DNA of 64,000 bases from Ilumatobacteraceae bacterium (GTDB lineage Bacteria; Actinomycetota; Acidimicrobiia; Acidimicrobiales; Ilumatobacteraceae): NCBI GenBank assembly GCA_044238435.1, contig JBIIDH010000001.1:5101-69100 (forward strand), written 5' to 3'. Below the pieces are notes generated by a model. That model saw nothing but the letters and a program-made list of their open reading frames with translations, did not search any database and was not told where the DNA came from. The translations under genes were made by a program, and so were the position numbers. Within the stretch, counting starts at the first letter, position 1. Every line of letters starts with the position of its first letter. Shown piece by piece: positions 1,385 through 28,138 of the stretch.

Positions 1385-1392
1385 CGTGGCTC

Positions 1393-5214: not shown

Positions 5215-5253
5215 CGACAGTACACCTTTGGACAGATTCCTTGTACGAACGTT

Positions 5254-7297
5254 TCAGGAATGATCGGGGGCGGACGCACCCTGGGCAGTGGACGGTCGGG
5301 TCTGCAGGGTGACGAGTTGCTCGAACGGGATGTGGCAGCGGATGACACCACCGTCGGGAGTGGCCAGCAGCGGCGGCTCGACCGTCGAGCACAGGTCGCC
5401 TTCCAGGCGCCGCGGGCAACGGGTGTGGAACACGCAACCGCTCGGCACGTTCACGGCACTGGGGATCTCGCCCTCGAGCCGGATGCGCTCGCGAGTGTTG
5501 CCGTCGACCGACGGTGCCGCCGACAACAGCGCCTCGGTATAGGGGTGGTGCGGCCCGTCGAACACCCGCTCGGCCGGGCCGAGTTCCATGATGCGGCCGA
5601 GGTACAGCACCGCGATGCGGTCGGACAGATAGCGCACCACGCGCAGATCGTGCGAGATGAACAGATAGCTCGTGCGGCTGTCGCGCTGCAGGTCGCCGAG
5701 CAGGTTCAAGATGGCCGCCTGCACCGATACGTCGAGCGACGAGGTGGGCTCGTCGCACACCACGATGCGCGGCTTGCCGGCGAAGGCACGGGCGATGGCC
5801 ACACGCTGTTTCAGGCCACCCGACAACTGCGAGGGCCGCATGTCGAGGTGGCGGTCGGTGAGACGCACGGCGCTGGTGATGCCGTGCAGCTCGGTGTCGA
5901 TCTCCGCCGCAGGCACCTGGCCCAGGCGGCGCAGACTGCGGCCGATGATGCGCCGCACCGAATGGCGGCGATTGAGCGCCGAGTCGGGGTTCTGGAAGAC
6001 GATCTGGATGGCGCGGATGTGGTCGATCGGGCGCTTCTTGGTGTGCGCCGCGAGGGGCGTGCCGTCGAGTGTGACGACCGCTCCCTTGTCGGGCGCCGTG
6101 ATGCCGAGGATCGTGTGGGCGAGCGTGGTCTTGCCGCTGCCCGATTCGCCCACCAGGCCGAGCGTCTCGCCGGCATACAGTTCGAGCGACACATCGCGGA
6201 CGGCTTGGATCTGCTTGCCGCCCTGCTGGAAGGTCTTGCTCACACCCTCGAGGCGCAGTAGGGGAGCGACGCTGCGGTCGACCACCGTGGCCGTGCCCTC
6301 GGGGAACTCCGACGAGGCCAGTTCGGCCACCCGATCGGTGTGGTGGCAGCGCACCATCCGTCCGTCGAGCACGACCGCAGGCGGCACCTCGGTGCGGCAC
6401 CGGTCGCTCGCCAGCGGGCAGCGATCGACGAACACACAGGTGGGCAGATCGGCGCCGAGCGCAGGCAGGAACCCGGGGATCGTCTCGAGCCGCTGAGCGG
6501 TCTGGCGCGAGCCCTGGCGGGGAAGACAGCGCAGCAGCCCAACGGTGTAGGGGTGCTGCGGATTGTCGAACACCTCTTGGGCCGAGCCCTCCTCGACCAG
6601 CTTGCCTGCGTACAGCACGCCCACCCGGTCGCACATCGAGCGGATGGCACCGAGATTGTGCGAGATGAACAGCACCGAGGTGCCGAACTCGCGCTTCAGG
6701 GCCCGCACCAGGTCGAGCACCTCGGCTTCGACGGTGGCGTCGAGGCCGGTGGTGGGTTCGTCGAGGATGAGCAACTGCGGGCTCGAGGCCAGCGCCATCG
6801 CGATGACCACGCGCTGCTGCATACCGCCGGAGAGCTGGTGCGGGTAGCGGCCCAGCACCGAGTCGGGGTCGGCGATCTGCACCTTGTCGAGCATCTCGCG
6901 CGCCCGTTGGCGCGCCTCGGCACGATCGATGCCGATCACCTCGAAGGCTTCCATCAGTTGCGGACCCACCTTGATGGTGGGGTTCAGGGCCTGGCCCGGG
7001 TCCTGGTAGACGATCGAGGCGTTGTTGGCGCGGAGCAGACGCAGCTCCTCGTTCGGCATCGCCATGATGTCGCGGCCGGCGAGCGACACCGTGCCACCGA
7101 TGATGCGGGCGTTGTCGGGTAGATAGCGCACGGCGGCGTAGGCGGCCGTGCTCTTACCGCACCCGCTCTCGCCCACCAGGCCATACGACTCGCCCGGCGC
7201 CACGGCGAACGACACCCCACGCAACACCTCGCGCAGGTTGCCACGCACCATGTAGCCGAGGCGCAGGTCGTCGAACTGGAGCGCTGCCTCGGTCATC
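5254..7297 (-). CDS. ABC transporter ATP-binding protein, fused tandem ATPase domains (DppD/DppF-like)
   Basis: 681 aa from MTEAALQFDDLRLGY. It has two Walker A motifs (GESGCGKST, GESGSGKTT) and two LSGG signatures. Its ATG overlaps the stop of the upstream permease (ATGA). The ORF-track N-terminal 300 aa are out-of-frame read-through of the permease gene. Confidence 0.9.
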
Positions 7298-8186
7298 GGT
7301 CGATCAGCCCCTGGATCCCGTCGGCGATGAGGTTGATGGCCACCACCAGCGAGGCCAGCGCCAGGGCGGGCACCACACACGGCCACCAGGCGTTGCTCAG
7401 CAGGCCGGCGCGCTCTTCGAAGATGGTGCGGCCCCAGTCGGGCGAGCCGGGCTGGGTGCCGAAGCCGATGAACGCGAGGCCGGCCATGGTGAACACGGCG
7501 TAACCGAGGCGGACGGTGAACTCGACGACGATGGGGCCCATCACGTTCGGCAGGATCTCGACGAACATGATGTAGCTGCTGCGTTCGCCGCGTAGTTCGG
7601 CAGCTCGCACGTAGTCGAGGTTGCGCTCGGCGAGAACGGCAGCGCGGATGGTGCGGGCGATGATGGGGCCGAACAGGATGCCGATGAGCAGGATGATGGT
7701 GCCGCGCCCGCTGCTGAGGGCGGTGAGGGCGAGCAGGGCCACCAAGATGAGCGGCAGGCTCATCAGGGCCTCGATGAGTCGGCTCAATGCGTCGTCGAGC
7801 GGGCCACGGAAGTAGCCCATCAGCAGGCCGAGCACAATGCCGATGACAGTTCCGAGGATGACTGCGGCGGGGGCGACGATCATGATCTCGCGGGCGCCGT
7901 AGATGGCCCGGCTGTACACGTCGCGTCCGAACCGGTCGGTGCCGAACCAGTGGCCTTCCTTGAAGAACGGATGGATCCACTTGCTGAGCGGATCCTGCTT
8001 CGACGGGTCGTGGGTGGCGATGACCGAGGGGATGATCGAGCAGACCACCCAGAACAGCACGATGAGCGAGCCGACGATGAAGGTCTTCGACCGGAACAAC
8101 TGGCGGCGCAACTCCTTGCGCACCGCCTTGGCGGTGTACCCGGTGGGCGCACCGGCCGTCGGTTCGAGTTCGGCGGGCATGGTCAT
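7293..8186 (-). CDS. ABC transporter permease (DppC/OppC-like)
   Basis: 297 aa from MTMPAELEP, multi-TM, with a typical permease C-terminus. It overlaps the upstream permease stop by 4 nt. Confidence 0.85.
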   Translation of the reverse strand: MTMPAELEPTAGAPTGYTAKAVRKELRRQLFRSKTFIVGSLIVLFWVVCSIIPSVIATHDPSKQDPLSKWIHPFFKEGHWFGTDRFGRDVYSRAIYGAREIMIVAPAAVILGTVIGIVLGLLMGYFRGPLDDALSRLIEALMSLPLILVALLALTALSSGRGTIILLIGILFGPIIARTIRAAVLAERNLDYVRAAELRGERSSYIMFVEILPNVMGPIVVEFTVRLGYAVFTMAGLAFIGFGTQPGSPDWGRTIFEERAGLLSNAWWPCVVPALALASLVVAINLIADGIQGLIDR

Positions 8187-9130
8187 TGCTTGTTCCCCAG
8201 TCGGACACGGGGGTTGAGCCAGGCGATGAGCACGTCGGCGATGAAGTTCAAGAACATCGCGATGGCGCCCACGATGAAGACCGACCCCATCAGCATCGGG
8301 ATGTCGCGGTCGCCGGCGGCATCGAAGACGAGCAAGCCGAGCCCGCGGTAGTTGAAGAGGGTCTCGGTGACCAACAGGCCACCGAGCAGGTAGCTCACCT
8401 GCACCGCGATGACGGCGATGGTGGGCACGAGCGAGTTGCGCAACACGTGGCGCCGCAGCACGGTGCGCCGCGGCAGGCCCTTCAAGATGGCCGTGCGGGT
8501 GTAGTCGGCCGACAATGCCTCGATGGTGCCGGCTCGTGTCATGCGTGACAGGTACCCGAACAGGATGGCGCTGAGGGTGACCGCAGGAAGGATGAGCACC
8601 TGGATCTGCTCCCAGATCGAACCTTTGGCCGAGCCGCCCGATGGCAGCCATCCCAGCTTCACCGCGAACACGATGATCAGCACGATGCCGATGACGAACT
8701 CGGGCGTGACGGCCAGGCTGAGACCTGCCACGGTGATGAACCGGTCGACGGTCTTGCCCTTGCGCAACGCTGCCACGGTGCCGCCGACGATGCCCAGCGG
8801 CACGACGATGAGGAAAGTCATTGCCGCCAGCTTCAACGACGACCACAGCGCTTTCGGCACGAAGTCCATCACCGGTGCCTTGAACTTGTAGGAGTTGCCG
8901 AAGTCGCCTTGCAGCGCATCGGTGAACCAGCGGATGTAGCGCCCGACCAGCGGCCCGTCGACCCCCAACTCGCGGTTGAGGTTGTCGACGGACTGCTGGT
9001 CGGCGAACGGACCGAGGATGGCTCGCCCCACACTTCCGGGCAGCACAGCGGCAATGGTGAACACCACCACGCTGAGGAGGAACAGCGTGATGAGGGCCAG
9101 GCCGAGCCGGCGGAGGACGAAGCGAGCCAT
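8183..9130 (-). CDS. ABC transporter permease (DppB/OppB-like)
   Basis: 315 aa, MARFVLRRLGLALITLFLLSVVVF…, with the six-TM BPD_transp_1 architecture. Confidence 0.85.
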   Translation of the reverse strand: MARFVLRRLGLALITLFLLSVVVFTIAAVLPGSVGRAILGPFADQQSVDNLNRELGVDGPLVGRYIRWFTDALQGDFGNSYKFKAPVMDFVPKALWSSLKLAAMTFLIVVPLGIVGGTVAALRKGKTVDRFITVAGLSLAVTPEFVIGIVLIIVFAVKLGWLPSGGSAKGSIWEQIQVLILPAVTLSAILFGYLSRMTRAGTIEALSADYTRTAILKGLPRRTVLRRHVLRNSLVPTIAVIAVQVSYLLGGLLVTETLFNYRGLGLLVFDAAGDRDIPMLMGSVFIVGAIAMFLNFIADVLIAWLNPRVRLGNKQ

Positions 9131-9168
9131 CGCTGGAGGTCAGATGGAGGTGAGTGGAGCCGGCAGCG

Positions 9169-10956
9169 TCAGGCGATGGTGACGCCGTCGACGAAGTAGT
9201 GGCCCATGCCCGTGGCGACCGCTCCCGAGACGTTGGCCTTGGTGACCGACAGGAAGTTGATCGCGAACGGGATGAGCATCGGCACCTCGTCCTGCAGGAT
9301 GCCGGTGATCTTCTCGCCGGCGGCCTTCTGGCCCTGCAGGTCGGGGGTCGACGAGTACTCGTCGACCGCTGCGTCGAAGTCGGCGTTCGCGAACTCGGCC
9401 GCGTTCCACACGCCCGCACCGTCTTCGACGCTCTTGAAGCTCTTCAGCGCAGCGTTCAGGTACACGTCGGGCACACCGCGGTGGCCGTAGTCGGTGATGC
9501 CGATGTCGGCGCCCGGCACGCTGGGGTCGTAGGTGCGCACCCAGTTCTTGTCGTAGTAGTCGTCGCGCAGCTCGATCGTGAGGTTGATCCCGATCTCCTT
9601 GGCGGCGTTCTGCAGGATGACGGCCAGGTCGGGGGCCTCGAAGTAGTTGATGCCGTAGAGCGTGGCGTCGAAGCCGCCACCGGCATCGGCGACGAGCTGC
9701 TTGGCCTTCTCGACGTCGTACGGCGTCTCGGGCACGTTGCCGGCCGACGGGTACATCCCGAACAGCGGCGTGTCGTACGCAGCGGCGGCGCGACCACCGA
9801 AGATGGCCTCGATGATGGCCTTGCGGTCGGTGGCGAGCGCCATGGCCTGGCGGATGCGCTTGTCGGCGAAGGGACCTTCCGAGCACCGCATGTGGATCTG
9901 GCGGTGGTTGGCCGAGGGGATCTCGGAGATCGTGTAGTCGGGGTTGTCGAACAGCGACTCTGCGCCTGCGTAGTTGAACTGCGGGATGGCGTCGATCTCG
10001 TCGGACTGGAACGCAGCAACGGTGGCCGCCTGGTCGCTGAAGAACGTGAACTCGAGGCCGCCGAGGCTCATCGGCTTGCCCCAGTAGTTGGGGTTCGGCA
10101 CGTAGACGACACCCGAGGTGGCGTCGAACGACTTGATGGTCCAGGGGCCCGTGGTGGCGATCTTGCCGGCGGCCACGTCGGCGGCGAAGTTGCTGGTGTC
10201 GGTGACCGAGGCGGGCAGGATGACCGCGTTGTAGTTGTCGCTCGACACGATGTACGGGAAGTTGGCGAACGGCCCGTTCAGGGTGAACACCACGGTGGTG
10301 TCGTCGGCGGCCTTGGTGCCACCGGGCGACAACTTGCCCGTGCTGAACGCCGACAGCGAGTTCGAGTTGTTGGCGGGGTCGACGAGGCGCTCGATGGTGG
10401 CCACGACATCGGCCGCCGTGACGGGGGAGCCATCGCTGAACTTGGCAGCCGGGTCGAGCTTGAAGGTCCACTCGGTGGCATCGGCGTTGGCCGACCACTC
10501 CTTGGCGAGCGACGGGCTGAGCGTGAGGTCGGGGTTCGACAGGGTGAGGAACTGGCCCACCTGGCTGAGCAGGATGAGGCCACCACCGTCGTTGACGAGC
10601 ACCGGGTCGAGCGTGGCCGACGCAGCCGACGGCGCGACGCCGGCGACACGGAGGGTGCCGCCCCGGGCAGCGGGGGCGCTGGTCTCGACCGGAGCGGCCG
10701 TGGTCTCGGTGGCTCCGCCGCCGGCCGTGGTCTCGGTGCCGCCGCCGGCGGCCGTGGTGGACGCCGACTCCTTGTCGTCGCCGCAGGCGGCGATGACGGC
10801 ACCGATCGCGGGCAGCGAGAGCCCGACGACCGTGCCCCGACGGATGAAGCCACGCCGCGACAAGCGGCCGGCCACGAATTCGTCGATCACGTGATTGGCG
10901 ACGTCGCCCTGTGTGCGGCGGATGCCGTCGATACGGGCGTGGTCCTTGCTGTTCAT
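9169..10956 (-). CDS. ABC transporter substrate-binding protein, family 5 (peptide/opine/nickel type), Tat-signal lipoprotein-like
   Basis: Start at MNSKDHARIDG…. It has a twin-arginine motif SRRGFIRRG, a hydrophobic stretch …AIGAVIAACGDD and a Thr/Gly-rich linker, with SBP_bac_5-like length. GGGGGA lies upstream of the ATG. The ORF-track upstream 66 aa are spurious. Confidence 0.8.
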   Translation of the reverse strand: MNSKDHARIDGIRRTQGDVANHVIDEFVAGRLSRRGFIRRGTVVGLSLPAIGAVIAACGDDKESASTTAAGGGTETTAGGGATETTAAPVETSAPAARGGTLRVAGVAPSAASATLDPVLVNDGGGLILLSQVGQFLTLSNPDLTLSPSLAKEWSANADATEWTFKLDPAAKFSDGSPVTAADVVATIERLVDPANNSNSLSAFSTGKLSPGGTKAADDTTVVFTLNGPFANFPYIVSSDNYNAVILPASVTDTSNFAADVAAGKIATTGPWTIKSFDATSGVVYVPNPNYWGKPMSLGGLEFTFFSDQAATVAAFQSDEIDAIPQFNYAGAESLFDNPDYTISEIPSANHRQIHMRCSEGPFADKRIRQAMALATDRKAIIEAIFGGRAAAAYDTPLFGMYPSAGNVPETPYDVEKAKQLVADAGGGFDATLYGINYFEAPDLAVILQNAAKEIGINLTIELRDDYYDKNWVRTYDPSVPGADIGITDYGHRGVPDVYLNAALKSFKSVEDGAGVWNAAEFANADFDAAVDEYSSTPDLQGQKAAGEKITGILQDEVPMLIPFAINFLSVTKANVSGAVATGMGHYFVDGVTIA

Positions 10957-11075
10957 GATCCCCCCAGAGGTCGTTGGTCGGTGCAGTATTGCACACACCC
11001 GATGTGTTGGTTCAGAGCAACCCCAGTTGCGATGAAACTCCTGACGTGCCCCGCGGCAGACAGTACCATCCGCCC

Positions 11076-11879
11076 ATGCCCAGCACCCTTGCGTCGGTCG
11101 TCGATCTCGAGTCCTATCCGCTCGATCGGGTCGGGTCGGATGACTGGATCGCACTCGTCGAACGGTGTCGCGCCGAGCTGATCGACCGGGGCATGTTCGA
11201 GTTGCCGGGCTTCCTGCGCGCCGATGTGCTGGCCGACATCACCGCCCGACTGCTGCCACGGATGGCGACCGAGTCGTGGGAGCAGCGACGGATGCACAAC
11301 ATCTACTTCCTCGACCACGTCGAGGGTCTGGCGCCCGACCATCCGGCCCTGCACCGCATCCTCACCGTGAACCACACCCTGTGCGCCGACCAGCTGCGCG
11401 ACACGGCGCTCACCGAGTTGTACGAGTGGGAGCCGTTCCGTCAGTTCATCGCCGCCACCGTGGGCATGGACGAGTTGTACCTGATGGACGACACCCTGGC
11501 CCGCGTGAACGTGCTCAGTTATCGCCCCGGCGAGGCGCTGAACTGGCACTTCGACCGATCGGTGTTCACCACCACGTTGCTGCTGCAGGCCGCCGAGCAC
11601 GACGGCATCTTCGAGTACCGCCGCGAGCTGCGCACCGACACCGACCCCAACTACGAGGGTGTGGGCCACGTCGTGGCGGGCACCGACCCCGACGTCATCC
11701 GCTGCGCGGTGCAGCCCGGGGCGCTCAACGTGTTCTTCGGCAAGAACACGGCCCACCGGGTCACCACCGTGGAGGGTTCGCTCGAGCGGATGATCGCCGT
11801 GTTCTCGTTCTACGACCGGCCCGGTGTGGTGTTCACCGACAGCGAGAACCTCGGCTTCTACGGTCGCACTGCACCGTGA
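11076..11879 (+). CDS. putative Fe(II)/2-oxoglutarate-dependent oxygenase (small PhyH/IDO-like)
   Basis: 267 aa from MPSTLASVVDLESY. It has a candidate HxD…H facial triad (NWHFDRS … NTAHRVTTV). It is divergent from the SBP operon and immediately upstream of the Rieske oxygenase. Family assignment is tentative. Confidence 0.5.
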   Translation: MPSTLASVVDLESYPLDRVGSDDWIALVERCRAELIDRGMFELPGFLRADVLADITARLLPRMATESWEQRRMHNIYFLDHVEGLAPDHPALHRILTVNHTLCADQLRDTALTELYEWEPFRQFIAATVGMDELYLMDDTLARVNVLSYRPGEALNWHFDRSVFTTTLLLQAAEHDGIFEYRRELRTDTDPNYEGVGHVVAGTDPDVIRCAVQPGALNVFFGKNTAHRVTTVEGSLERMIAVFSFYDRPGVVFTDSENLGFYGRTAP

Positions 11880-13021
11880 ACCCGACGCAGCCCGCCGGAG
11901 CGCTGGCCGCCGTGAGGCGTGCCCTCGTGGCGGCCGAGCAGCAGGGCTACGACGACGCCTGGTCGCTGCCGCACGAGGCCTACACCGATACCGACCTCCT
12001 GGCCGTCGAGCAGTTGGAACTGTTCGGCCAGGAGTGGGTGTGCATCGGTCGGGGCGACGAGATCGCCCACGTGGGCGACACGATGCCGTTCCAGCTCTGC
12101 GACGAGCCGCTCGTCGCAGTGCGCGGCGACGACGGTCGGGTTCGTGTGCTGTCGAACGTGTGCCGTCACCGCGGTGCCATCGTCGTGCCCGAACGCAGCC
12201 AGGGGTCGCATCTGCTGTGCCCCTACCACCACTGGTCGTACGACCTCGACGGGGCGCTGGCCCGCGCCCCGCGCCTCGACGAGCACACTGCGTTCGAGCC
12301 AGCCGCCTGCCGCCTGCCGGAGGTGGCCTGCGAGGAGTGGCTCGGGTTCCTGTTCGTGTCGCTGGCCGACCGACCAGCGCCCCTGGCGCCCCGTCTGGCC
12401 GGGCTCGAAGCGCTCGTCGGTAACTACCACCTCGAACAGATGACCACCCGCTTCGTGGCCGACGAGGTGTGGCCCACCAACTGGAAGTGCTTCGTCGAGA
12501 ACTTCATGGAGGGCTACCACCTCACCCCGCTGCACCGAACCACTCTGCACCCGGTGAACCCCACCCGACTGTGCCGGCACTACGAACCCGGCGACGCCTA
12601 TTTCGGCTATCACGCCGGGTTCTCGCCCGATCTGCCGCGCAGCGAGCGCGGCCATCCAGACCTGTCGCCCGCAGAGGTCGACAACTGCGTGATGTTCGCC
12701 ATCCCGCCCGGCCTGGTGTCGGGGTGCGCGGGCGACTACAGCTCGTTCATCTGCATCCAGCCCGAGAGCGTCGACCGGGTGCGGTTGAAGATGGGGCTGC
12801 AGTTCTTCGGCGAGCACTGGACCGACGAACTGGTCGAGCACGCCGCGGTGCTGTTCCAGGAGACGAACGCCGAGGACCGCGTGGTGCTCGAGGGCATCAC
12901 CCGGGCCTATCGGTCACGGCACCATCGGCCGGGGCCACTCGCCCCGGCCGCGTTCGAAGGACCGATCCACGACTTCCACCGGTACCTGGCCAGGCGGCTG
13001 GTACCGGCGCTGGGCGCCTGA
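11876..13021 (+). CDS. Rieske non-heme iron oxygenase alpha subunit, GbcA/Stc2/CntA-like (betaine N-demethylase type)
   Basis: The GTG start overlaps the upstream stop (GTGA). N-terminus LPHEAYTDTDLLAVEQLELFGQEWVCIGRGDE is typical of the family. The Rieske motif is CRHRG…x17…CPYHHW, followed by a C-terminal catalytic domain. The ORF-track N-terminal 237 aa are out-of-frame junk. Confidence 0.8.
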   Translation: MNPTQPAGALAAVRRALVAAEQQGYDDAWSLPHEAYTDTDLLAVEQLELFGQEWVCIGRGDEIAHVGDTMPFQLCDEPLVAVRGDDGRVRVLSNVCRHRGAIVVPERSQGSHLLCPYHHWSYDLDGALARAPRLDEHTAFEPAACRLPEVACEEWLGFLFVSLADRPAPLAPRLAGLEALVGNYHLEQMTTRFVADEVWPTNWKCFVENFMEGYHLTPLHRTTLHPVNPTRLCRHYEPGDAYFGYHAGFSPDLPRSERGHPDLSPAEVDNCVMFAIPPGLVSGCAGDYSSFICIQPESVDRVRLKMGLQFFGEHWTDELVEHAAVLFQETNAEDRVVLEGITRAYRSRHHRPGPLAPAAFEGPIHDFHRYLARRLVPALGA

Positions 13022-13029
13022 TCAGGCGC
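13014..13029. other. perfect 16-bp palindrome GCGCCTGATCAGGCGC containing both stop codons of the convergent Rieske and DMGO genes
   Basis: Seen in the sequence. The genes abut with a zero-length spacer (TGA/TCA). Confidence 0.3.
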
Positions 13030-15481
13030 GCATCCGCAGGCCCTCGGGGTCGAGCACCGGCTCGTGCTGCAGCGTCGCCGGGCGACGACGGCCCATGATC
13101 TCGATCTCGAAGCCCGATTCGGCCGTAGCGATCTCGGTGGGGACGTAGCCGAGGGCCAGCGACACCGCCGAGTAGTGGGCGTAGCCGCCACTGGTGATCC
13201 AGCCGACCACCTCGCCGTTGTGCCACACCGGCTCGTCGCCGATCACGTCGGCGGGGGCATCGGGGTCGACCTCGACACGGAACATGACGAGCTTGCGCTT
13301 CGGGCCGCCGGCGGCGATCTCGGCCTCGACGGCTGCACGTCCGATGAACTCGTGGTCGAACTTCAGCGAACGGTCCATGCCGGCCTCGAGCGGCGTGTAG
13401 ATGGGCCGGTACTCGCGGTACCAGGTGCCGAAGTTCTTCTCGAGACGCATCGTGATGAGCGCTCGGAAGCCGAACAGGCGCATGTCGAACTCCTGGCCGG
13501 CCTCCCAGATGAGGTCGAACAGGTAGCGCTGGTACTCGGGCTCCATCCAGATCTCGTAGCCGAGATCGCCCGAGTAGGTCATCCGGCTCAGCCACACCGG
13601 CGCCATGCCGAGGTTCACCTTGCGGAACGCCATGAACGGGAAGTCCTTCGTGGCGAGCGAGGTGTCGGTGAGCTTCTGGAGCACATCGCGCGACAGCGGA
13701 CCAGCCACGGTGAGGCCCACCATCGACAGACGGAGGTTCTCGAAGCGGATGGGGCTGCCTTCGGGCAGGTGCGAGAGGAACCACCGCGGGTGGTGCACCT
13801 CGGCGGCCTGCGAGCCGAACAGGAAGAACTCGTCGTCGCCGATGCGGCTGACCGAGAACTCGCCCTCGATACGACCCTGCGGGTTCAGCATCGCAGTGAG
13901 GTTGGTGCGGCCGATCTTCGGCAGGCTGTTGGTGAACAGACCCTGCAGCCACTCGGCTGCGCCGGGGCCACTCACCTTGTACTTGGCGAAGTTCGAGGCC
14001 TCGCTGAAGCCCACCCGCTCGCGCACCGCACGGCTCTCCTCGGCCACCACGTCGAACGCGTTCGAACGCAGGAAGGTGATGTTCTCGACCGGCTCGAGGC
14101 CCGGCTTCTGGAACCACAGCGGGTGCTCGAGACCCATCGCCGCGCCCCACACCGCATTGTGCGCGGTGAGACGGTCGTAGATGGGGGTGGTGAGCAGCGG
14201 ACGTGCCGCCGGCAGTTCCTCGTTCGGGAAGGTGATGCGGAAGCGCCGCGAGTAGTTCTCGCGCACTTTCGAGTTGGTGTATGCGAGGGTGGCGAAGTCG
14301 CCGTAGCGGGCCACGTCCATGCCCCAGATGTCGGCACCCGGGTCGCCGTTCACCATCCACTCGGCGAGGCTGAGGCCCACGCCACCGCCCTGCGACAGAC
14401 CGGCCATCACGGCGCACGCCGACCACATGCCGCGCATGCCCTTGATGGGGCCCACCAGCGGGTTGCCGTCGGGGCTGAACGTGAACGGCCCGTTCACGAA
14501 CCGCTGGATACCGGCGCGGCCGACGGCGGGGAAGTGCTCGAAGGCCCGCTCGAGCTCGGGCGAGATGCGGTCGAGGTCGTGGGGGAGCAGCTGCGAGACG
14601 AAGTCCCACGGGGTCTGCTTGGCCGACCACACCCGGTTCTCCTGCTCGTAGGTGCCGAGCAGGATGCTCTGGCCCTCCTGGCGGGCGTAGATCTCGCCGG
14701 CGAAGTCGATCATGTGGGGCAGTTCGCGGCCGTGCGTCTGGTTGTACTCGATCACCTCGGGCATCGGCTCGGTCATCAGGTAGTGGTGCTCCATCGCCAG
14801 CACCGGCAGCTCCAAGCCGCACATCCGGCCCACTTCACGGGCCCACAGACCGCCGGCGTTCACGACGTGCTCGGTGTGGATGACACCCTTGTCGTCGCCG
14901 GTGTTCGGGTCGTAGCAGTGCACGTCCCAGGTGCCGTCCTGACGCTGGGTGAGCTTGTTCACCCAGGTGTGCTGGTAGGTCTCGGCGCCGCGGTTGCGGG
15001 CGCAGATGAGGTACGCGTTGGTCACGCCGGTGGGGTCGACGCTGCCCTCGTCCTCGTCGTACATCGCGCCGACGAAGAAGCGCTCCTCGAGCAGCGGGTT
15101 CAGCTCCTTGGCCTCCTTCATCGACATCATCTCGGTCTTCATGCCGAGGTAGCGGCCGCGGGCGTGCGCCATGCGCAGCCAGTCGAGGCGCTCGGGCGTG
15201 TCGGCCAGCTGCAGGCCGCCGGGCAGGTGGATGCCGCAGTTCTGGCCGCTCTCGGCCTCGATCTCGCGGTACAGGTTCACCGTGTACTGCTGCAGGCGGG
15301 CCACGTTGGGGTCGCCGTTCAGCGTGTGCATGCCACCTGCGGCATGCCACGTGCTGCCCGAGGTGTACGTCGCCTTCTCGACGAGAACGACATCGGACCA
15401 GCCGGCCTTGGTGAGGTGGTACAGCACGCTGGCGCCGACCACACCTCCACCGATGACGACGACCTGGGTTGAGGTTTTCAT
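13022..15481 (-). CDS. dimethylglycine oxidase / sarcosine-dimethylglycine dehydrogenase family flavoenzyme (FAD DAO domain fused to GcvT folate-binding domain)
   Basis: 819 aa from MKTSTQVVVIGGGVVGASVLYHL (Rossmann GxGxxG). The C-terminal half is glycine-cleavage-T-like. AGGAG lies 7 nt upstream of the ATG. The 120-aa ORF-track extension is spurious. Confidence 0.85.
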   Translation of the reverse strand: MKTSTQVVVIGGGVVGASVLYHLTKAGWSDVVLVEKATYTSGSTWHAAGGMHTLNGDPNVARLQQYTVNLYREIEAESGQNCGIHLPGGLQLADTPERLDWLRMAHARGRYLGMKTEMMSMKEAKELNPLLEERFFVGAMYDEDEGSVDPTGVTNAYLICARNRGAETYQHTWVNKLTQRQDGTWDVHCYDPNTGDDKGVIHTEHVVNAGGLWAREVGRMCGLELPVLAMEHHYLMTEPMPEVIEYNQTHGRELPHMIDFAGEIYARQEGQSILLGTYEQENRVWSAKQTPWDFVSQLLPHDLDRISPELERAFEHFPAVGRAGIQRFVNGPFTFSPDGNPLVGPIKGMRGMWSACAVMAGLSQGGGVGLSLAEWMVNGDPGADIWGMDVARYGDFATLAYTNSKVRENYSRRFRITFPNEELPAARPLLTTPIYDRLTAHNAVWGAAMGLEHPLWFQKPGLEPVENITFLRSNAFDVVAEESRAVRERVGFSEASNFAKYKVSGPGAAEWLQGLFTNSLPKIGRTNLTAMLNPQGRIEGEFSVSRIGDDEFFLFGSQAAEVHHPRWFLSHLPEGSPIRFENLRLSMVGLTVAGPLSRDVLQKLTDTSLATKDFPFMAFRKVNLGMAPVWLSRMTYSGDLGYEIWMEPEYQRYLFDLIWEAGQEFDMRLFGFRALITMRLEKNFGTWYREYRPIYTPLEAGMDRSLKFDHEFIGRAAVEAEIAAGGPKRKLVMFRVEVDPDAPADVIGDEPVWHNGEVVGWITSGGYAHYSAVSLALGYVPTEIATAESGFEIEIMGRRRPATLQHEPVLDPEGLRMRA

Positions 15482-15539
15482 GCGGTACTCCTGGACTGAA
15501 AGGTTGCTGAGCTGGAATGGAACGAGTGAGAGGGACCGG

Positions 15540-17156
15540 TCAGTAGTCGGTGGCGACGCCGCCCTCGGCGACGCGCCGGGCGAGGAACTCGTCGAGTTCC
15601 TGGCGGCGGTCGGCGGGCATGGCGGGCGGCTCGTAGGCGTCGAGGAACTTGGCGGCGAGCTGCTTGGCCTTGCCGTCGGCGGTGGGCGAGCCGGCTTCCT
15701 CCCAGCTCTCGTAGTTGCGCCAGTCGCTGAGGAACGGTCGATAGAAGGCGTCGCGGAACCGGGCCTGAGTGTGCGCCGTACCGAAGAAGTGGCCACCCGG
15801 CCCGACCTCTTCGATGGTGTCGATGGCGAGCGTGTCGGCATCGACGATGACGGGCTCCATCATCTTGGTGACCATCTGCAACAGGTCGGCGTCGAGCACC
15901 ATCTTCTCGAGGCTCGAGTGGAGGCCACCCTCCATCCAGCCAGCGCCGTGCATCATGAAGTTCACGCCACCCATGACGGCGCCCCACAGCGCGAACACGC
16001 TTTCGTAGGCGGCCTGGGCGTCGAGCGCGTTGGCTGCACAGACGTTCGAGCTGCGGTACGGGATGCCGTAGCGGCGGGCCAACTGGCCGCCGATCATGGC
16101 GGTGCGCACGTACTCGGGGGTGCCGAACGCCGGCGCGCCGCTCTGCATGTCGACGTTCGAGGTGAACCCTCCGTACATCGCCGGCGCGCCAGGGTTGACG
16201 ATCTGCAGGAAGGCGATACCCGCCAGGGCTTCGGCGTTCTGCTGCGCCAGCGCGCCGGCCAGCGTGATGGGAGCCATGGCGCCGGCGAGGGTGAACGGGG
16301 TGACCACGACGGGCTGGTTGTGGAGGGCGAACTCGATCATGCCCTGTGCCATCGGGATGTCGAGACGCAGCGGCGAGTTGGTGTTCACCACGGTGATGAG
16401 TGACGGCTCGCGGTCGATGGTGGCCTGGTCGACACCGCGGGCGATGCGCACCATCTCGATGCAGTCGATGTTGCGCTGGCGACCGAGGCTGTAGCAGTAC
16501 ATGCCCTTGTCGGTCATCGTGAGGATGTCGTGCGAGGCCTCGAGATGGCGTACCGAGTGGTGGATGTCGATCGGTTCCACCGGGTAGCCCGGCACGTAGT
16601 GGATGACGTTCAGCATCTGCGCCAGCTTCAGCAGGTCGCGGAAGCCTTCGCGGTCGCCGGTGCGGCGCACGCCGTTGCGGTCGATGTAGTGCGGGGTGCT
16701 GGCCACCGTGCCGAACGTGAGCCAGCGGCCGCCGATGCGCACGTTGTGGTCGGGGTTCCAGCTGTGCAGGGTGTACTCGCTGGGTGCCGTGGTGATGGCC
16801 GACTCGATCAGTTCACGGGGGAAGCGCACCCGGTGGTTGCTCTCGTCGACATCGGCGCCGGCAGCCTTCATGATGCTGCGCGACTCGGGGCACATGAACT
16901 CCATGCCGATGCGTTCGAGGATGGTGAGCGAGGCCTGGTGGATCGACTCGAGCTCGTCGGCCGACACCACCTCGGTGTGGTTGAGTCGCATCTGCGGCTG
17001 CTTGAAGGGCAACTGCTCGGGCAGCCGGGAACGGGTGCCCTCGGCGCGGTCGCGGCCACGCCGACGAGCGGGAGTTCCGCCGTCTGGTCCGCTGGTGGGG
17101 CCGGTGTCGGAAGCGGTGTCGGTCACGAGATCCGACACTACACCGCCCGACGGCAT
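15540..17156 (-). CDS. MttB-superfamily (trimethylamine methyltransferase family) methyltransferase, non-pyrrolysine type
   Basis: 538 aa, uninterrupted with no in-frame amber. It aligns along its full length with the second copy at 26624..28138 (…[21 protein letters not shown]…[18 protein letters not shown]…[19 protein letters not shown]…GPGGHFF…). AAGGA lies 4 nt upstream. It ends 58 nt upstream of the DMGO-like gene. Confidence 0.85.
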
Positions 17157-17221
17157 TCCTTGTACGGTTGTCTCGCGAATGGCCGAGCCGGCCGCGTGTC
17201 GTGGAGGAGAGGGGCCGAGCC

Positions 17222-18391
17222 GTGAGCACGATCGTCGCCATCGACATCACCCACCACCAACTGGTGCTCGACCCACCGTTCCCGGCGTCGTGGGATCCGC
17301 AGCCCCGCACGCGGTTCCCCGCCACGATCGTGCGGGTCCGCGACAGCGAGGGTCGGGTGGGCGTGGGCTCGGGCGATGCGATGTACGGCTTCGCCGACTA
17401 CGCCCGCTGGTTCCTGGGCGAGGACCCGCTCGATCTCCAGCAGCACGCGGCCTGCCTGGCCAACGTGGGCTTCCATGCCGGTCGCCCGTGGCCGCTCGAC
17501 GTGGCCCTGTGGGATCTCGCCGGTCAGATCCGCGAGCAGCCGGTGTGGTCGATGCTCGGTGGACGATCGCCCCGGCTGCGGGTATACGCCTCCACCGCAG
17601 TGCACAGGCCGGTGGCGGCGATGGTGGAGGTGGCCCGACGACTCGTCGACGAGGGCTTCGACGCGATGAAGGTGCGGTTCGGTCGAGCGTCGCTGGCCGA
17701 CGACCTGGCCGTCGTGCGCGCGGTTCGAGATGCGGTCGGGCTGGCGCTGACCCTCATGGTCGACTGCAACCAGGGGTGGCGCATGCCGTGGGACACCCAG
17801 GCCCCCTGGCATCTCGACCAGGCCACCGAGGTGGCGCTGGCCCTGCAGCGCGAGGGCGTGTACTGGATGGAGGAACCGCTGCACCGCGGCGACTACGGCG
17901 CGATGAGCGAACTGCGGCGGCGGGTGCGCGAGGCGGCCATCGGTGAGGCACCGATGCTGATCGCCGGCGGCGAGATGACACGTGAGCCGTACGAGTTCGA
18001 CGAGTTGCTGCGACGCGATTGCCTCGACGTGTTCCAGCCGGACGTGGTGTGCACGCAGGGGTTCGCTGCACTCGCCTCGCTGGGGCGCCGCGTGGTGGCC
18101 GACGGCAAGGTGTTCACGCCGCACACGTGGGGTAACGGCATCGGGGTGCTGGCCAACCTCCATCTGACGGCCGGGTCGGTGGGCCACGAGGGGTCGCGGT
18201 GGGTGGAGTTCCCGCTCGACCCACCGGAATGGAGTATCGAGCGACGCGACTACCCGCTCGAATCTCCGATCACTGCAGAGCGCGGTGAACAGGGCATGTG
18301 GGTCGAGCTCGGCGAGCGACCCGGTCTCGGCATCGACCTCGACGAACAGCGCCTCGCGGCCACCGCCAGTGCCTCGGCCACCTTCTCCTGA
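17222..18391 (+). CDS. enolase-superfamily enzyme, mandelate racemase/muconate-lactonizing-enzyme subgroup (racemase/epimerase/dehydratase)
   Basis: GTG start [12 protein letters not shown] preceded by GGAGGAGAGGGG. It has N-terminal capping and C-terminal barrel features (…MVDCNQGW…EEP…DV…). It is divergent from the MttB gene. Confidence 0.8.
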
Positions 18392-18417
18392 CCGTCGGCC
18401 TGGTTAGCCTCCACACC

Positions 18418-19584
18418 GTGTCCACCATCGCCAGCATCGTCGCCACCCCGGTCAACGTGCCGATGGTGGCGCCCTACCGGTTCTCGTTCGGCACTCTCGC
18501 CAGCTTCACCACCACCATCGTCGAGGTCACCGACAGTGACGGGGTCACCGGCATCGGCGAGACCCCGCACGGCGACCTCTCGGGCCTGATCTCCTCGATG
18601 GGCGCGCAGCTCGCCGGTTGCTCGGTCGACGACCTGAACGGGTGCGAAGCCCGGTGTGTGGCCCGCACCGGCTTCAGCCTGTGGGACGACTCGGCCAACG
18701 AGCGGCGGGCGTTCGGCGGCATCGAGATGGCGCTGTGGGACCTGCGGGCCAAGCGTGCCGGTGTTCCGCTGGTCGACCTGCTCGGTGGCCGAGTGCGCGA
18801 CAGCGTGGCGTTCACCGAGTACTTCGCGCTGCGCGTGGGCCGTGAGGAGACACCCGTCGACGTGGTGCGCTACTGCGAGCAGATCGCCGCCGATTTCGAC
18901 GCCCGGGTGTTCGAGGGCAAGCTCGGCGTGCTCGACGTGGAGACCGAGATGGCCATGGTGGCCGATCTGGTGCGGGCGCTCGGGCCGGGCCGGGTGCAGC
19001 GCCTCGATGCCAACGGCGTGTACACCGTGCCCACCGCTCGTCAGGTGGTGCGACGGCTCGCCGATCTGGGAGTGGGCTGGCTGGAAGACCCGTGCCGTAC
19101 CCACGACGAGACGGCCCGTCTACGCGCCGACGGGGCGCCGATCTCGTTCAGCACCCACCAGGTCGACCTCGCCCGCGCCGCCCGCGATGGCGTGCCCGAT
19201 GCCTTCTGCATCGACGCCACCGAGATGGGCGGCCTGCGACGCACGCAGGACTTCCTGCGCGCCTGCGCTGCGCTCGGCATCGACTTCTGGTGCTACAGCG
19301 GCGACGCCGGCGTGATGACCGCCGCCTACCTGCACCTCACCGCGGCGGAGGCATCGATGATCCGTCCGCACCAGAGCCTGTTCCGGTTCACCGCCGACGT
19401 GGTCGTCGAGCAGGGTCACTACTCGCCGAGGGGTGGTGTGCTGCCGGTGCCCGAGGCACCCGGCCTCGGTGTCACCATCGATCGGGCGGCCTTGGCTCGG
19501 CTCCATGAACGCTTCCGTGCCGAAGGGTCGATGGCGGCATCCGATGGCGACGGCGGGTACCGCCAGCAGTTCCGTCAGCAGTAG
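18418..19584 (+). CDS. enolase-superfamily enzyme (second tandem paralog)
   Basis: GTG start VSTIASIVATPVNVP, the same VSTI start as its neighbour. It has MR/MLE-like features (…LDANGVYT…EDP…). It lies 27 nt after the first copy. Confidence 0.8.
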   Translation: MSTIASIVATPVNVPMVAPYRFSFGTLASFTTTIVEVTDSDGVTGIGETPHGDLSGLISSMGAQLAGCSVDDLNGCEARCVARTGFSLWDDSANERRAFGGIEMALWDLRAKRAGVPLVDLLGGRVRDSVAFTEYFALRVGREETPVDVVRYCEQIAADFDARVFEGKLGVLDVETEMAMVADLVRALGPGRVQRLDANGVYTVPTARQVVRRLADLGVGWLEDPCRTHDETARLRADGAPISFSTHQVDLARAARDGVPDAFCIDATEMGGLRRTQDFLRACAALGIDFWCYSGDAGVMTAAYLHLTAAEASMIRPHQSLFRFTADVVVEQGHYSPRGGVLPVPEAPGLGVTIDRAALARLHERFRAEGSMAASDGDGGYRQQFRQQ

Positions 19585-19616: not shown

Positions 19617-20231
19617 GTGGCGCGGACACCCGATCTCGAGCGTCGGCAGGAACTGCTCGACCGGATCGTCGATCACCTCGCCGAACACGGCCTCGCGCAG
19701 ACGACGTTGCGGCCACTCGCCGCCTCGCTCGGTGTCAGCATCAACCGCCTCGTGCACCATTTCGGTACCAAGGAGGAGCTGCTCGCCACGGCGTTGCGCC
19801 GCGGTGTCGAGCGGCAGAACGAGATCGAGGACGCGTGGATCGAGCGCGACCCGTCGATCTCGATGGCCGACATCTACCGCAAGTGGTGGAAGTGGATGAA
19901 CGCCAAACCGCAGAACCTGGCGCTCGTTCGACTCGGGTACGAGGCGGCTGCACTGAACACCACCGTCACCGGTCTCCCCGGCGACCTGCGCGCCGACCAG
20001 TTGGCGGTGTGGCGGCACTTCGTGGAGGAGAAGCTGCACCGCGAGGGCCTGCCCATGCCGCTCGCCCAGAGCGAGGCATCCATCCAGAAGGCCATCTTCA
20101 CCGGGTTGATCATCGACCTCGTGGCGTCGGGCGATCGCAAGCGACTCGGTGCAGCACTCGAGGTGTCGCTGCAGCGGCTCGAGGCGCTCATCGCCGCGGC
20201 CCGCGCCTCCACCGAACTGTCCGACACATAG
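19617..20231 (+). CDS. TetR-family transcriptional regulator
   Basis: 204 aa with an N-terminal HTH (LAEHGLAQTTLRPLAASLGVSINRLVHHFGTKEELL). GTG start. Confidence 0.8.
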   Translation: MARTPDLERRQELLDRIVDHLAEHGLAQTTLRPLAASLGVSINRLVHHFGTKEELLATALRRGVERQNEIEDAWIERDPSISMADIYRKWWKWMNAKPQNLALVRLGYEAAALNTTVTGLPGDLRADQLAVWRHFVEEKLHREGLPMPLAQSEASIQKAIFTGLIIDLVASGDRKRLGAALEVSLQRLEALIAAARASTELSDT

Positions 20232-26235: not shown

Positions 26236-26613
26236 ATGAGCGATCGCACCAAGCCTTCCATCACCATTCCCGCCGGCGACCCGCCCGCCGACCTGCTGAT
26301 CGACGACGAGATCGTCGGCGACGGCGACGAGGCCACCATCGGCAAGCGGGTCACCGTGCACTACGCCGGTGTGGCGTGGAGCACAGGCAGCGAGTTCGAC
26401 GCCAGCTGGAACCGCGGCGAGACGTTCAGCTTCCGCCTCGGCGCCCGCGAAGTGATCGAGGGCTGGGACCGCGGCGTGAAGGGGATGAAGGTGGGTGGCC
26501 GTCGGCGCCTCACCATCCCGGCCGACCTGGGCTACGGCAGCAGGGGAGCGGGCGGGGTGATCAAGGGCGGCGAGACCCTCGTGTTCGTCGTCGACCTCGT
26601 CTCGGTGCGCTGA
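26236..26613 (+). CDS. FKBP-type peptidyl-prolyl cis-trans isomerase
   Basis: 125 aa. …VTVHYAGVAWSTGSEFDASWNRGETFSFRLGAREVIEGWDRGVKGMKVGGRRRLTIPADLGYG… is the canonical FKBP fold signature. Confidence 0.9.
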   Translation: MSDRTKPSITIPAGDPPADLLIDDEIVGDGDEATIGKRVTVHYAGVAWSTGSEFDASWNRGETFSFRLGAREVIEGWDRGVKGMKVGGRRRLTIPADLGYGSRGAGGVIKGGETLVFVVDLVSVR

Positions 26614-26623
26614 GCAACCGTCG

Positions 26624-28138
26624 GTGAGCCGCCTCAACCGCACCCGTACTCGGCGCGAGGCGACCGGCGCCACGCCACAGCCGTTCACCCCGCTGCGCAA
26701 CCCGTACCGTCCGGTGGAGGTGCTGTCGGCCGACCAGGTCGAGCACATCCACCGCTCGTCGCTGCAACTGCTGGCCACCACCGGGATGCGCATCCTCGAT
26801 GCACAGGCGCGGCGCTACTTCGCCGACGCCGGGTGCGTGGTCGACGACCTGATCGTGCGGTTCGACCCCGAGATGGTGGAGGCCACCGTCGCCCTCGCTC
26901 CTGCCGAGTTCACCCTGCGGGCCCGGAACCCGCAGCACTCGATCACGCTCGGCGGCAACCATGTGGCGTTCAGTGCCGTGGGAGGCCCCGCCTTCACCCA
27001 CGACCTCGACCGCGGGCGTCGCGGCGGCTCGGCCGCCGAACAGCGCGAGTACCTGCAGCTCATCCAGATGCTGGGCGTGGTGCACCAAGAGGGTGGCGGC
27101 CCGTTCGAGGCACTCGACCTGCCCGCCGAGACCCGGCACCTCGACCTCTACCTGAGCCTCATCCGCACCCTCGACAAGAACTGGCAGGCCGTTGCGCTGG
27201 GCCGCGAGCGCGCGGCCGACGCCATCGACATGGCCGCCATCGCCCTCGGCACCGACCGCGACGGTCTGGCTGCCATGCCCGCCGTGATGGCGGTCATCAA
27301 CACCAACACCCCGCTCACGCTCGACATCCCGATGGCCGAGGGGCTCATCGAACTCGCGGGCGCCGGACAGGCGGTGTGCGTCACCCCGTTCACGCTCGCC
27401 GGCGCCATGGCCCCGGCCACCATCGCCGGCGCGCTGGTGCTCCAGAACGCCGAAGCGCTGGCCGGTATCACCCTCACCCAACTGGTCAGGCCCGGCGCAC
27501 CAGCCATCTACGGCTCGTTCACGTCGAACGTCGACATGCGCAGCGGCTCGCCGGCCTTCGGCACTCCTGAGTTCACCCGTGCCGCGCAGGCGAGCGGCCA
27601 ACTGGCCCGCCGCTACGGGCTGCCGTTCCGGTCGTCGAACACCACGGCCTCGAACGCCGTCGACGCCCAGGCCGCCTACGAGAGCGGCATGTCGCTGTGG
27701 GGCGCCGTGATGGGCGGCGCCCACCTGGTGAACCACGCCGCAGGCTGGTTGGAGGGAGGGCTCACGGCGTCGTTCGAGAAGCTGATCATCGACGCCGAGA
27801 TGCTGCAGATGATGGCCGAGTACCTGAAGCCCATCGAGGTGAACGACGCCGAGATCGGCCTCGACGCCATCGCAGCCGTGGGGCCCGGCGGGCACTTCTT
27901 CGCCTCACCCCACACGATGGAGCGCTACGAGCGGGCGTTCTACTCGCCACTCGTGTCGGACTGGCGCAACTTCGAGACCTGGCAGGAGTCAGGCTCGATC
28001 GACGCCACCCACCGCGCCAACCGCATCTGGAAGCAGTTGCTCGACCAGTACGAGGCGCCCGTGCTCGATCCAGCCATCGACGAAGCGCTCGTCGACTTCG
28101 TGGTCCGCCGCCGGGCGGCGCTCGACTCGGTGGCCTGA
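26624..28138 (+). CDS. MttB-superfamily methyltransferase, non-pyrrolysine type (second paralog)
   Basis: 504 aa, uninterrupted. It shares blocks with the first copy ([64 protein letters not shown]). GTG start 10 nt after the FKBP stop. Confidence 0.85.
   Translation: MSRLNRTRTRREATGATPQPFTPLRNPYRPVEVLSADQVEHIHRSSLQLLATTGMRILDAQARRYFADAGCVVDDLIVRFDPEMVEATVALAPAEFTLRARNPQHSITLGGNHVAFSAVGGPAFTHDLDRGRRGGSAAEQREYLQLIQMLGVVHQEGGGPFEALDLPAETRHLDLYLSLIRTLDKNWQAVALGRERAADAIDMAAIALGTDRDGLAAMPAVMAVINTNTPLTLDIPMAEGLIELAGAGQAVCVTPFTLAGAMAPATIAGALVLQNAEALAGITLTQLVRPGAPAIYGSFTSNVDMRSGSPAFGTPEFTRAAQASGQLARRYGLPFRSSNTTASNAVDAQAAYESGMSLWGAVMGGAHLVNHAAGWLEGGLTASFEKLIIDAEMLQMMAEYLKPIEVNDAEIGLDAIAAVGPGGHFFASPHTMERYERAFYSPLVSDWRNFETWQESGSIDATHRANRIWKQLLDQYEAPVLDPAIDEALVDFVVRRRAALDSVA

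Follow-up and report, generated by a model that had tools for sequence, protein, structure and literature searches.

A 64-kb stretch of DNA from the genome of a freshwater bacterium of the Ilumatobacteraceae (Acidimicrobiia, Actinomycetota), referred to here as the window, encodes a methyltransferase of the MttB superfamily, designated MttB1, and, directly downstream on the same strand, a flavoenzyme that resembles dimethylglycine dehydrogenase (DMGDH). It is likely that MttB1 takes part in a conventional cobalamin-dependent demethylation of acidic betaines, and that the corrinoid protein and the other partners of the methyltransferase are encoded outside the 64 kb analysed. This view is built on the features of the two proteins and the conservation of their pairing, on sister genomes in which orthologous pairs adjoin corrinoid-system genes, and on the published precedent of an aerobe, Ruegeria pomeroyi, in which the corresponding genes are dispersed.

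The window has a G+C content of ~69% and carries actinobacterial markers recognised by Pfam, namely two Pup-ligase family genes, a proteasome subunit and ATPase, and TatA/TatC. The Pfam scans took in 58 open reading frames (ORFs) spanning its whole length. For comparison we used 80 loci from species-representative genomes that carry MttB1 orthologs, 78 of which have enough sequence for gene spacing to be measured. These loci (given L numbers below) and the closest MttB1 homologues come from metagenome-assembled genomes of freshwater, soil and other environments, with identities of up to 99%, and the labels of the homologue genomes are mostly Ilumatobacteraceae, Acidimicrobiaceae or Actinomycetota. 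The genomes of L003 (JBEICS01), L004 (JBIKLX01) and L005 (JBAXSU01) are nearly identical to the source, and the MttB1 protein recurs unchanged in a Lake Mendota series (JGI 3300044614). Residue conservation was counted over MttB1 and its 120 closest homologues (n=121).

MttB1 and its flavoenzyme partner

MttB1 (15540..17156, minus strand) matches the PF06253 MTTB profile over its full length (positions 1-500/500) at E 7.8e-193 and 641.5 bits, the cut-off being 25. Because the ORF is uninterrupted, without an in-frame amber codon, MttB1 is a non-pyrrolysine member of the superfamily; against the Pyl-type equivalog TIGR02369 it scores 315 bits, the cut-off being 525. Translation may start at a GTG at 17138 or 17126 instead of the ATG at 17156. 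The solved structures nearest to MttB1 are 4yyc (E 1.1e-110), which we take from its sequence label to be a protein of S. meliloti, and MtgB of D. hafniense (2qne/9yce, E 7e-87).

D. hafniense MtgB binds the nitrogen of glycine betaine with Tyr97 and Phe356, by cation-π interactions, and the carboxylate with His348 and Arg312, the latter forming a salt bridge; every characterised member that acts on acidic betaines has Arg312, His348 being less strictly required, whereas the aromatic pair is not conserved (PMC13080624). MttB1 belongs to the same superfamily as MtgB (Ticak et al. 2014; Picking et al. 2026, PMC13080624), which adopts a TIM-barrel fold in 2qne and 9yce, is 35% identical to it and, in an alignment that follows the D. 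hafniense MtgB numbering, keeps the equivalents of Arg312 and His348, but Tyr97 is replaced by Ala and Phe356 by Gly. Among the MttB1 clade Arg312 is present in 121/121 sequences and His348 in 120/121, while position 97 is occupied by Ala in 74, Gly in 46 and Cys in one. Position 356 is Gly in 121/121, and a Trp at the residue-352 position is likewise invariant. Since both carboxylate-binding residues are retained, MttB1 is assigned as an acidic quaternary-amine methyltransferase, and it is predicted to function as a quaternary-amine (acidic betaine):corrinoid methyltransferase. On this alignment MttB1 and its homologues form a clade in which the substrate pocket is altered. The system also differs from that of D. 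hafniense in its aerobic host and in the lack of adjacent partners, and the MttB1 gene is followed by one for an oxidative flavoenzyme, whereas D. hafniense MtgB feeds an anaerobic energy pathway.

The flavoenzyme (13022..15481, minus strand) is a protein of 819 residues in which an FAD oxidoreductase is fused to a folate-binding GcvT module, all four Pfam domains (DAO, FAO_M, GCV_T and GCV_T_C) scoring above cut-off in the single polypeptide. It aligns with human DMGDH (5l46) over residues 4-817 at E 4.5e-165, and with the rat dimethylglycine dehydrogenase (4p9s) likewise from end to end, while the match to the dimethylglycine oxidase of Arthrobacter (1pj5) is poorer (E 3e-88). The four-domain architecture, the full-length alignment and the GcvT module are shared with all three of these enzymes. 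The best structural matches are DMGDH enzymes, but there is no sarcosine dehydrogenase structure with which to compare. The stretch 'sgstwhaag' aligns with 'agstwhaag' of human DMGDH, and the His of GSTWHAAG is, we assume, the residue that carries the covalent FAD in the mammalian enzyme. No ETF domain was found by Pfam among the window ORFs scanned. The sequence-only reading of this DNA had called the partner of MttB1 a dimethylglycine oxidase-type enzyme; the FAD-GcvT architecture stands, but the protein is closer to the dehydrogenases than to the oxidase. The flavoenzyme is predicted to be an oxidative N-demethylase of the tertiary amine left by MttB1, the methyl group being captured on tetrahydrofolate (THF).

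Coordinates and Pfam agree that the two genes share a strand and that 58 nt separate the end of MttB1 from the start of the flavoenzyme gene, as had been noted earlier, and a simple scan of this spacer (15482..15539, minus strand) found no promoter-like or terminator-like site. In 75 of the 78 loci the MttB1 ortholog is followed in the same orientation by the flavoenzyme gene after a gap of 12-118 nt (median 34), and the pairing is held across MttB1 identities of 65-99%; tight adjacency is lost in three loci (L046, L047 and L050). Such adjacency is far beyond chance, and since the short spacing is kept in 75/78 loci over so wide a range of identity, MttB1 and the flavoenzyme can be regarded as a conserved functional unit. 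The claim that the two genes form an operon is therefore upheld in the sense of a conserved and probably co-transcribed unit, and a two-step route, in which a methyltransferase is followed by a THF-capturing flavoenzyme, is the natural reading of the pair.

An alternative is that the adjacency has no functional meaning, the two proteins serving separate pathways, or that MttB1 is a relic in a genome that has lost its corrinoid system. The want of a local partner would fit such a view, as would the three loci in which the genes are not tightly adjacent. Against this, the pair retains its short spacers over 65-99% identity, tblastn matches span both reading frames end to end wherever the contig permits, and the key residues are invariant. 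In addition, the same design recurs with a further paralog found in relatives, MttBc (see below), the gene of which is followed by one for a demethylase-type protein of the Oxidored_FMN/Pyr_redox kind. We accordingly give either version of this alternative very little credence.

Probable corrinoid partners of MttB1

The sequence-only reading had reported that neither a corrinoid protein nor a partner methyltransferase is encoded in the 64 kb, and this is borne out by Pfam, six-frame motif and tblastn searches. No PF02310, PF02607, PF00809 or RACo domain was detected in the 58 window ORFs, and the pattern DxHxxG...SxL...GG, which recovered every true corrinoid protein in related loci, occurs in none of the six frames of the window. 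Searches of the window by tblastn returned nothing below E 0.1 with four domains of E. coli MetH, and nothing below E 0.2 with the actinobacterial corrinoid protein, DUF1638 protein, pterin methyltransferase, RACo and homocysteine methyltransferase. Nor was there any Rfam match in the window, the cobalamin riboswitch included.

Genes of this kind do occur close to orthologous pairs in sister Ilumatobacteraceae. In eight of the 80 loci (L061, L062, L064, L069, L072, L076, L077 and L078), the MttB1 orthologs of which are 72-75% identical to the window protein, the pair is preceded on its own strand, at a distance of 2.6-9.4 kb, by corrinoid-system genes, all three marker genes being detected in four of the eight. 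The canonical set consists of a corrinoid protein, a DUF1638 protein, a pterin methyltransferase, a RACo activase and another MttB. Pfam and ORF reading of L064, where the set is complete, give the order corrinoid protein, DUF1638, Pterin_bind methyltransferase, RACo-type activase, MttBc, MttB1 ortholog and flavoenzyme. The corrinoid protein of this locus has 240 residues, B12-binding_2 and B12-binding domains, and the motifs DIHDIG...SALL...GG. The same set is found in L094, followed there by an ortholog (70% identity) of Eno1, an enolase-superfamily protein of the window. The corrinoid protein is strongly conserved, at 85-97% identity over the 120 database sequences that match it best, and many of these carry the label Ilumatobacteraceae or Actinomycetota.

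The corrinoid set also stands alone on other Ilumatobacteraceae contigs, where it adjoins genes for an OpuA-type transporter (OpuAC), a GMC oxidoreductase resembling choline dehydrogenase, a weakly MTHFR-like protein (E 0.003) and a homocysteine S-methyltransferase; FTHFS and FolD are also present in the stand-alone clusters L084-L093. Judged by its gene content, the stand-alone cluster is an MtgBCDE layout, and relatives of the window thus carry the arrangement of MtgC, MtgD, activase and homocysteine methyltransferase known from R. pomeroyi. In the stand-alone clusters L084-L093, L099 and L100 a small PF13769 'Virulence_fact' gene lies between those for DUF1638 and the pterin methyltransferase. 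The weak MTHFR match in L084 (E 0.003) is to a 294-aa protein encoded after MttBc, which may be a MetF2-like enzyme oxidising methyl-THF, as proposed for Ruegeria. We considered a common lineage for the low-GC (0.52) corrinoid clusters L084-L093 and the MttB1 loci L080-L082, which are low in GC too; the shared flanking genes are only 58-76% identical and provide no link.

Separation of an MttB-family gene from those of its partners has a precedent in an aerobe. In R. pomeroyi betaines induce two PF06253 homologues of MtgB, SPO2108 and SPO2134, and the organism needs MtgC (SPO2160) and MtgD (SPO1863), the genes of which are at separate loci, in order to grow on glycine betaine (Mausz et al. 2025, PMC12478193). 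Its mtgC, mtgD and MttB-family genes are separate ORFs with widely spaced locus tags, and its corrinoid and pterin partners also serve a split methionine synthase (PMC12478193). The characterised quaternary-amine members MtgB, MtpB, MtcB, MtyB and MthB all work through a corrinoid protein (PMC12478193, PMC13080624). Like the MtgBCD(E) system of R. pomeroyi DSS-3, in which the methyltransferase is encoded away from its PF02310 and PF00809 partners, MttB1 is a PF06253 protein of an aerobe, its host has several MttB paralogs, and candidate genes for the demethylation of dimethylglycine and sarcosine are close by. Unlike R. pomeroyi, which belongs to the marine Proteobacteria, the organism is a freshwater member of the Actinomycetota, MttB1 comes from a clade without Tyr97, and the system is known here from its genes alone. 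Given the R. pomeroyi precedent and the corrinoid dependence of the characterised quaternary-amine members, a 64-kb window devoid of partners has the look of a conventional dispersed system.

These comparisons bear on the acceptor of the methyl group, for which the sequence-only reading had listed free cobalamin, a trans-encoded corrinoid protein and direct transfer to THF. The second of these is favoured by the gene sets of the sister genomes and by R. pomeroyi. The further suggestion that the pairing is mechanistically novel is not sustained, as orthologous pairs (72-75%) adjoin genes of a canonical corrinoid set in sister Ilumatobacteraceae and the corresponding genes are dispersed in R. 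pomeroyi.

In the pathway we propose, an acidic quaternary amine would lose its first methyl to MttB1, which would load it onto Co(I) in a small corrinoid protein. From there a pterin-binding methyltransferase would hand the methyl to THF, and a RACo-type activase would restore cofactor that had become oxidised. The DMGDH-type enzyme would then demethylate the resulting tertiary amine, passing the one-carbon unit to THF through its GcvT module, and a sarcosine-oxidase-like set encoded in the window would probably take the last methyl. The division of labour has a chemical rationale: because the quaternary nitrogen is without a lone pair for flavin oxidation, nucleophilic Co(I) would remove the first methyl and flavoenzymes the rest.

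Several observations weigh against a conventional system with partners in trans. In the closer relatives (76-99% identity) there is no corrinoid gene within 10 kb of MttB1, and none lies within that distance in the MttBc-centred metagenome loci of the L101-L112 type, although among MttBc-centred loci L118 has a corrinoid gene and L134 has one by motif only. When MttB1 and the corrinoid cluster were sought on the same contig of window-type genomes, only the adjacent cases L076, L077 and L078 were recovered. For the source genome itself we infer partners in trans from orthology, from pocket residues that are invariant across lineages and from published precedent. The direction of methyl flow and the substrate are likewise predictions, and the co-transcription of the pair is proposed from the spacing and a simple terminator scan.

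It might be argued from these negatives that MttB1 works independently of a corrinoid protein, either using free cobalamin or methylating THF without an intermediary, for which the GcvT module of the adjacent flavoenzyme might provide the site. Such a mechanism would account for the lack of a partner both in the 64 kb and within 10 kb in any closer relative, and for the flavoenzyme gene (75/78) being a far steadier neighbour than any corrinoid gene (8/80), and MtgB does methylate free cob(I)alamin in vitro (PMC13080624). Steady adjacency to the next enzyme of a pathway is, however, ordinary operon logic, and an aerobe offers a precedent for dispersed genes (PMC12478193). Orthologs of 72-75% identity that carry the same invariant pocket residues adjoin genes of the corrinoid set (complete in L064), and because these residues are invariant in homologues with and without nearby corrinoid genes, there is no sign of altered chemistry. 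A search of the full-text literature found no report of a superfamily member that works without a corrinoid. Corrinoid independence is thus very unlikely, and it is just as improbable that the window-type Ilumatobacteraceae lack a dedicated corrinoid carrier altogether.

Substrate of MttB1 and the other MttB paralogs

Glycine betaine, the substrate put forward in the sequence-only reading, is the leading candidate for MttB1, a call to which we would attach roughly even odds. The DMGDH match of the flavoenzyme and a three-step arrangement of genes speak for it, while the altered pocket, the type of the nearby importer, the divergence of the sarcosine-oxidase-like genes and the existence of a better-placed paralog, MttBc, speak against it. 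The flavoenzyme is as near to authentic DMGDH as could be expected, the match extending over its full length, and the combination of a methyltransferase with DMGDH-like and sarcosine-oxidase-like enzymes corresponds exactly to the three demethylations of glycine betaine; in L011 the three stand in a row.

The sarcosine-oxidase-like set of the window (1148..5253, minus strand) is a divergent one, and consists of an alpha-like subunit (3010-5253), an ORF in the gamma position (2598-2996), a beta-like DAO protein (1393-2601) and SoxD (1148-1384). The alpha-like subunit (747 aa, unusually short) contains Fer2_4, SO_alpha_A3 and GCV_T domains, the N-terminal Fer2_4 lying where the first half of the SoxA model would be expected. 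SoxD is above its Pfam cut-off (65 bits), the 132-aa protein in the gamma position has no Pfam family match, and the gamma-position ORF runs into the beta-like gene, stop and start overlapping in ATGA. L011, L015 and L016 have SoxA-like and SoxB-like genes behind the flavoenzyme gene in the same orientation, immediately behind it in L011, and SoxD comes after it in L011 and L016. The set is a candidate for the last demethylation step. The peptide/opine-type ABC importer (5254..11154, minus strand), likewise downstream of the flavoenzyme gene, comprises an SBP_bac_5 binding protein (9169-11154), a permease (8183-9139) and a long ORF with two ABC ATPase domains (5254-8247); its orthologs (69-89% identity) come after the flavoenzyme gene in L005, L006, L010 and L036.

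Three of the features just mentioned count against the glycine betaine pathway as drawn above. MttB1 lacks the aromatic pair (Tyr97 and Phe356) that characterises the glycine betaine site of MtgB, having Ala and Gly instead. The nearby transporter is of the peptide/opine type (SBP_bac_5) rather than OpuAC/ProX. Finally, the NCBIfam scores for soxA (268 bits, cut-off 1164) and soxB (397 bits, cut-off 529) are both below cut-off, and as the alpha-like and beta-like subunits miss their family cut-offs the set is called sarcosine-oxidase-like only.

MttB1 and the DMGDH-type enzyme may instead serve a different acidic betaine, for example gamma-butyrobetaine, proline betaine or one of the hydroxyproline or alanine type, with glycine betaine left to MttBc; the chemistry would still be corrinoid-dependent. 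This is a serious possibility, which we place somewhat short of an even chance. The Y97A and F356L mutations raise the Km of MtgB several hundred-fold (PMC13080624), and MttB1 has Ala and Gly at these positions, the entire clade having Ala, Gly or Cys at position 97. MttBc, by contrast, keeps Tyr97 and is closer to MtgB, at 43-44% identity as against the 35% of MttB1, and its neighbours in relatives include genes for OpuAC and a GMC oxidoreductase. The SBP_bac_5 transporter, the divergent Sox-like genes, the adjoining CntA/Stc2-like Rieske oxygenase and the enolase-superfamily genes that are frequent divergent neighbours of MttB1 are all consistent with a substrate of this kind. The DMGDH match and the correspondence to the three steps of glycine betaine demethylation argue for glycine betaine itself. 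The significance of the altered pocket is also tempered by the observation that Phe356 is replaced by Gly in 4yyc and MttBc as well, with a conserved Trp four residues earlier, so that the aromatic cage may be differently built; the Trp at the residue-352 position might substitute for the aromatic pair.

MttBc, which occurs in relatives of the window, retains Tyr97, Arg312 and His348, has Gly at position 356, and is 60% identical to 4yyc. Window-type relatives have the order MttB1, flavoenzyme, ABC importer and MttBc. In L101 and L111 MttBc is followed by a protein of 724-745 residues with Oxidored_FMN and Pyr_redox_2 domains and then by FTHFS (with FolD in L111), and a GMC-oxidoreductase-like gene is found further downstream of MttBc in the MttBc-centred loci. 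We take the combination of Oxidored_FMN and Pyr_redox_2 to be the architecture of DgcA, StcD and trimethylamine dehydrogenase. By domain architecture, each of these MttB paralogs has its own tertiary-amine flavoprotein, of the DMGDH type for MttB1 and of the DgcA/StcD type for MttBc, and the pairing of MttBc with such a demethylase in window-type relatives fits either assignment of glycine betaine. An ATPase gene at the window's left end (2-1102, plus strand) has orthologs (65-80% identity) that flank MttBc in L108, L111, L156, L057 and L101, the start of MttBc overlapping the stop of the ATPase gene in L057. For this reason a third MttB, MttBc, may lie ~7 kb beyond the start of the window, and it is probably this gene, not a corrinoid gene, that is situated just to the left. 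The left-edge ATPase gene was also compared with the gene that follows the corrinoid cluster in L099; they are not the same gene.

The second MttB-superfamily paralog of the window itself, MttB2 (26561..28138, plus strand; PF06253, E 1.9e-192), is 46% identical to MttB1 and 39% to MtgB, and keeps Arg312 and His348, while Tyr97 and Phe356 are both replaced by Gly. Its gene is placed after an FKBP gene and before one for a 647-aa protein without a family match, and no flavoenzyme, corrinoid or transporter gene is near it. Genomes often contain up to seven MttB paralogs (PMC12478193).

Neighbouring genes and wider significance

The stretch 11880-13021, empty at first sight, holds a gene, overlooked in the sequence-only reading, for a Rieske non-haem-iron oxygenase of the quaternary-amine group (CntA/GbcA/Stc2-like; 11876..13021, plus strand; PF00355 and PF00848). 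The gene is convergent with that of the flavoenzyme and abuts its stop codon with zero spacing. It has a third-position GC of 0.82-0.98, and its stop-to-stop frame extends through the upstream gene. The best solved match of the protein is carnitine monooxygenase CntA (6y8j, E 6.9e-34), followed by 3n0q and by 3vca (E 2e-22), an entry deposited as 'Ring-hydroxylating dioxygenase' that we take to be Stc2 of S. meliloti. As in GbcA, Stc2 and CntA, Rieske and catalytic domains are both present, an architecture that represents an oxygen-dependent alternative attack on a quaternary amine; unlike GbcA, the window protein is below the cut-off of the NCBIfam GbcA family (145 bits against 670). No reductase-type domain was found among the nearby ORFs scanned around the gene. 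Full or near-full copies are present only in L004, L005 and L006, with a 73-aa remnant in L029, and because it is restricted to the closest relatives the Rieske gene is regarded as accessory and outside the conserved pair.

Just upstream, a gene for a 301-aa protein to which no family is assigned (10974..11879, plus strand) has a stop that overlaps with the GTG at which the Rieske gene starts, an arrangement that suggests translational coupling of the two. The 301-aa protein has no match at default thresholds, HalD being sub-threshold (E 0.003); an HxD...H pattern like that of a 2-oxoglutarate/Fe(II) enzyme can be seen by eye, and the ortholog in L005 is 89% identical.

On the other side of the pair, divergent from MttB1, are two enolase-superfamily genes (17168..19584, plus strand; MR_MLE_C and MR_MLE_N), Eno1 (17168-18391) and Eno2 (18298-19584), the products of which are 27% identical to each other. 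Orthologs of one or both are found upstream of the pair in roughly half of the loci (37 and 39 of 80). The nearest solved structures are uncharacterised or sugar-acid enzymes of the superfamily, Eno1 resembling sugar-acid dehydratases. A role for Eno1 and Eno2 as HpbD-type epimerases of proline or hydroxyproline betaine, which would have favoured proline betaine as the substrate, is neither supported nor excluded by these comparisons, the matches of Eno2 to the HpbD-type structures 2pmq, 4h2h and 4e8g (1e-19 to 1e-22) being worse than those to muconate cycloisomerases and uncharacterised enolases. Beyond Eno2 is a TetR-family regulator (19617..20231, plus strand; PF00440), which adjoins the enolase genes in L005, L006, L007 and L009.

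Other genes of the window were recorded in passing. A block at 20847-24265, which encodes a PLP decarboxylase (MfnA/GAD-like), a class-V aminotransferase/desulfurase-like protein and an Amidohydro_2 protein, is kept with the locus in L005, L006 and L007. Three adjoining genes at 33221-36279 encode a regulator of the RpiR/SIS type, a dioxygenase of the TauD family and a beta-eliminating lyase; read from stop to stop, the first two frames share ~360 nt, so that at least one start is mis-set. A 548-aa protein of the ThyX family (Thy1; 44186-45832, minus strand) is about twice the usual length and shows two matched stretches, which suggests a duplicated or fused flavin-dependent thymidylate synthase.

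What is new here is modest: a freshwater example of the system from an actinobacterium, a clade of MttB proteins whose pocket is altered, and the paired modules of methyltransferase and flavoenzyme. The example of MttB1 cautions against equating 'no corrinoid gene nearby' with 'no corrinoid', and against trusting the database label 'trimethylamine methyltransferase'. If, as we think likely, MttB1 acts with corrinoid partners encoded elsewhere in the genome, aerobic cobalamin-dependent demethylation of betaines would be extended from marine Proteobacteria to abundant freshwater Actinomycetota, which would imply a demand for vitamin B12 linked to osmolyte turnover in lakes.

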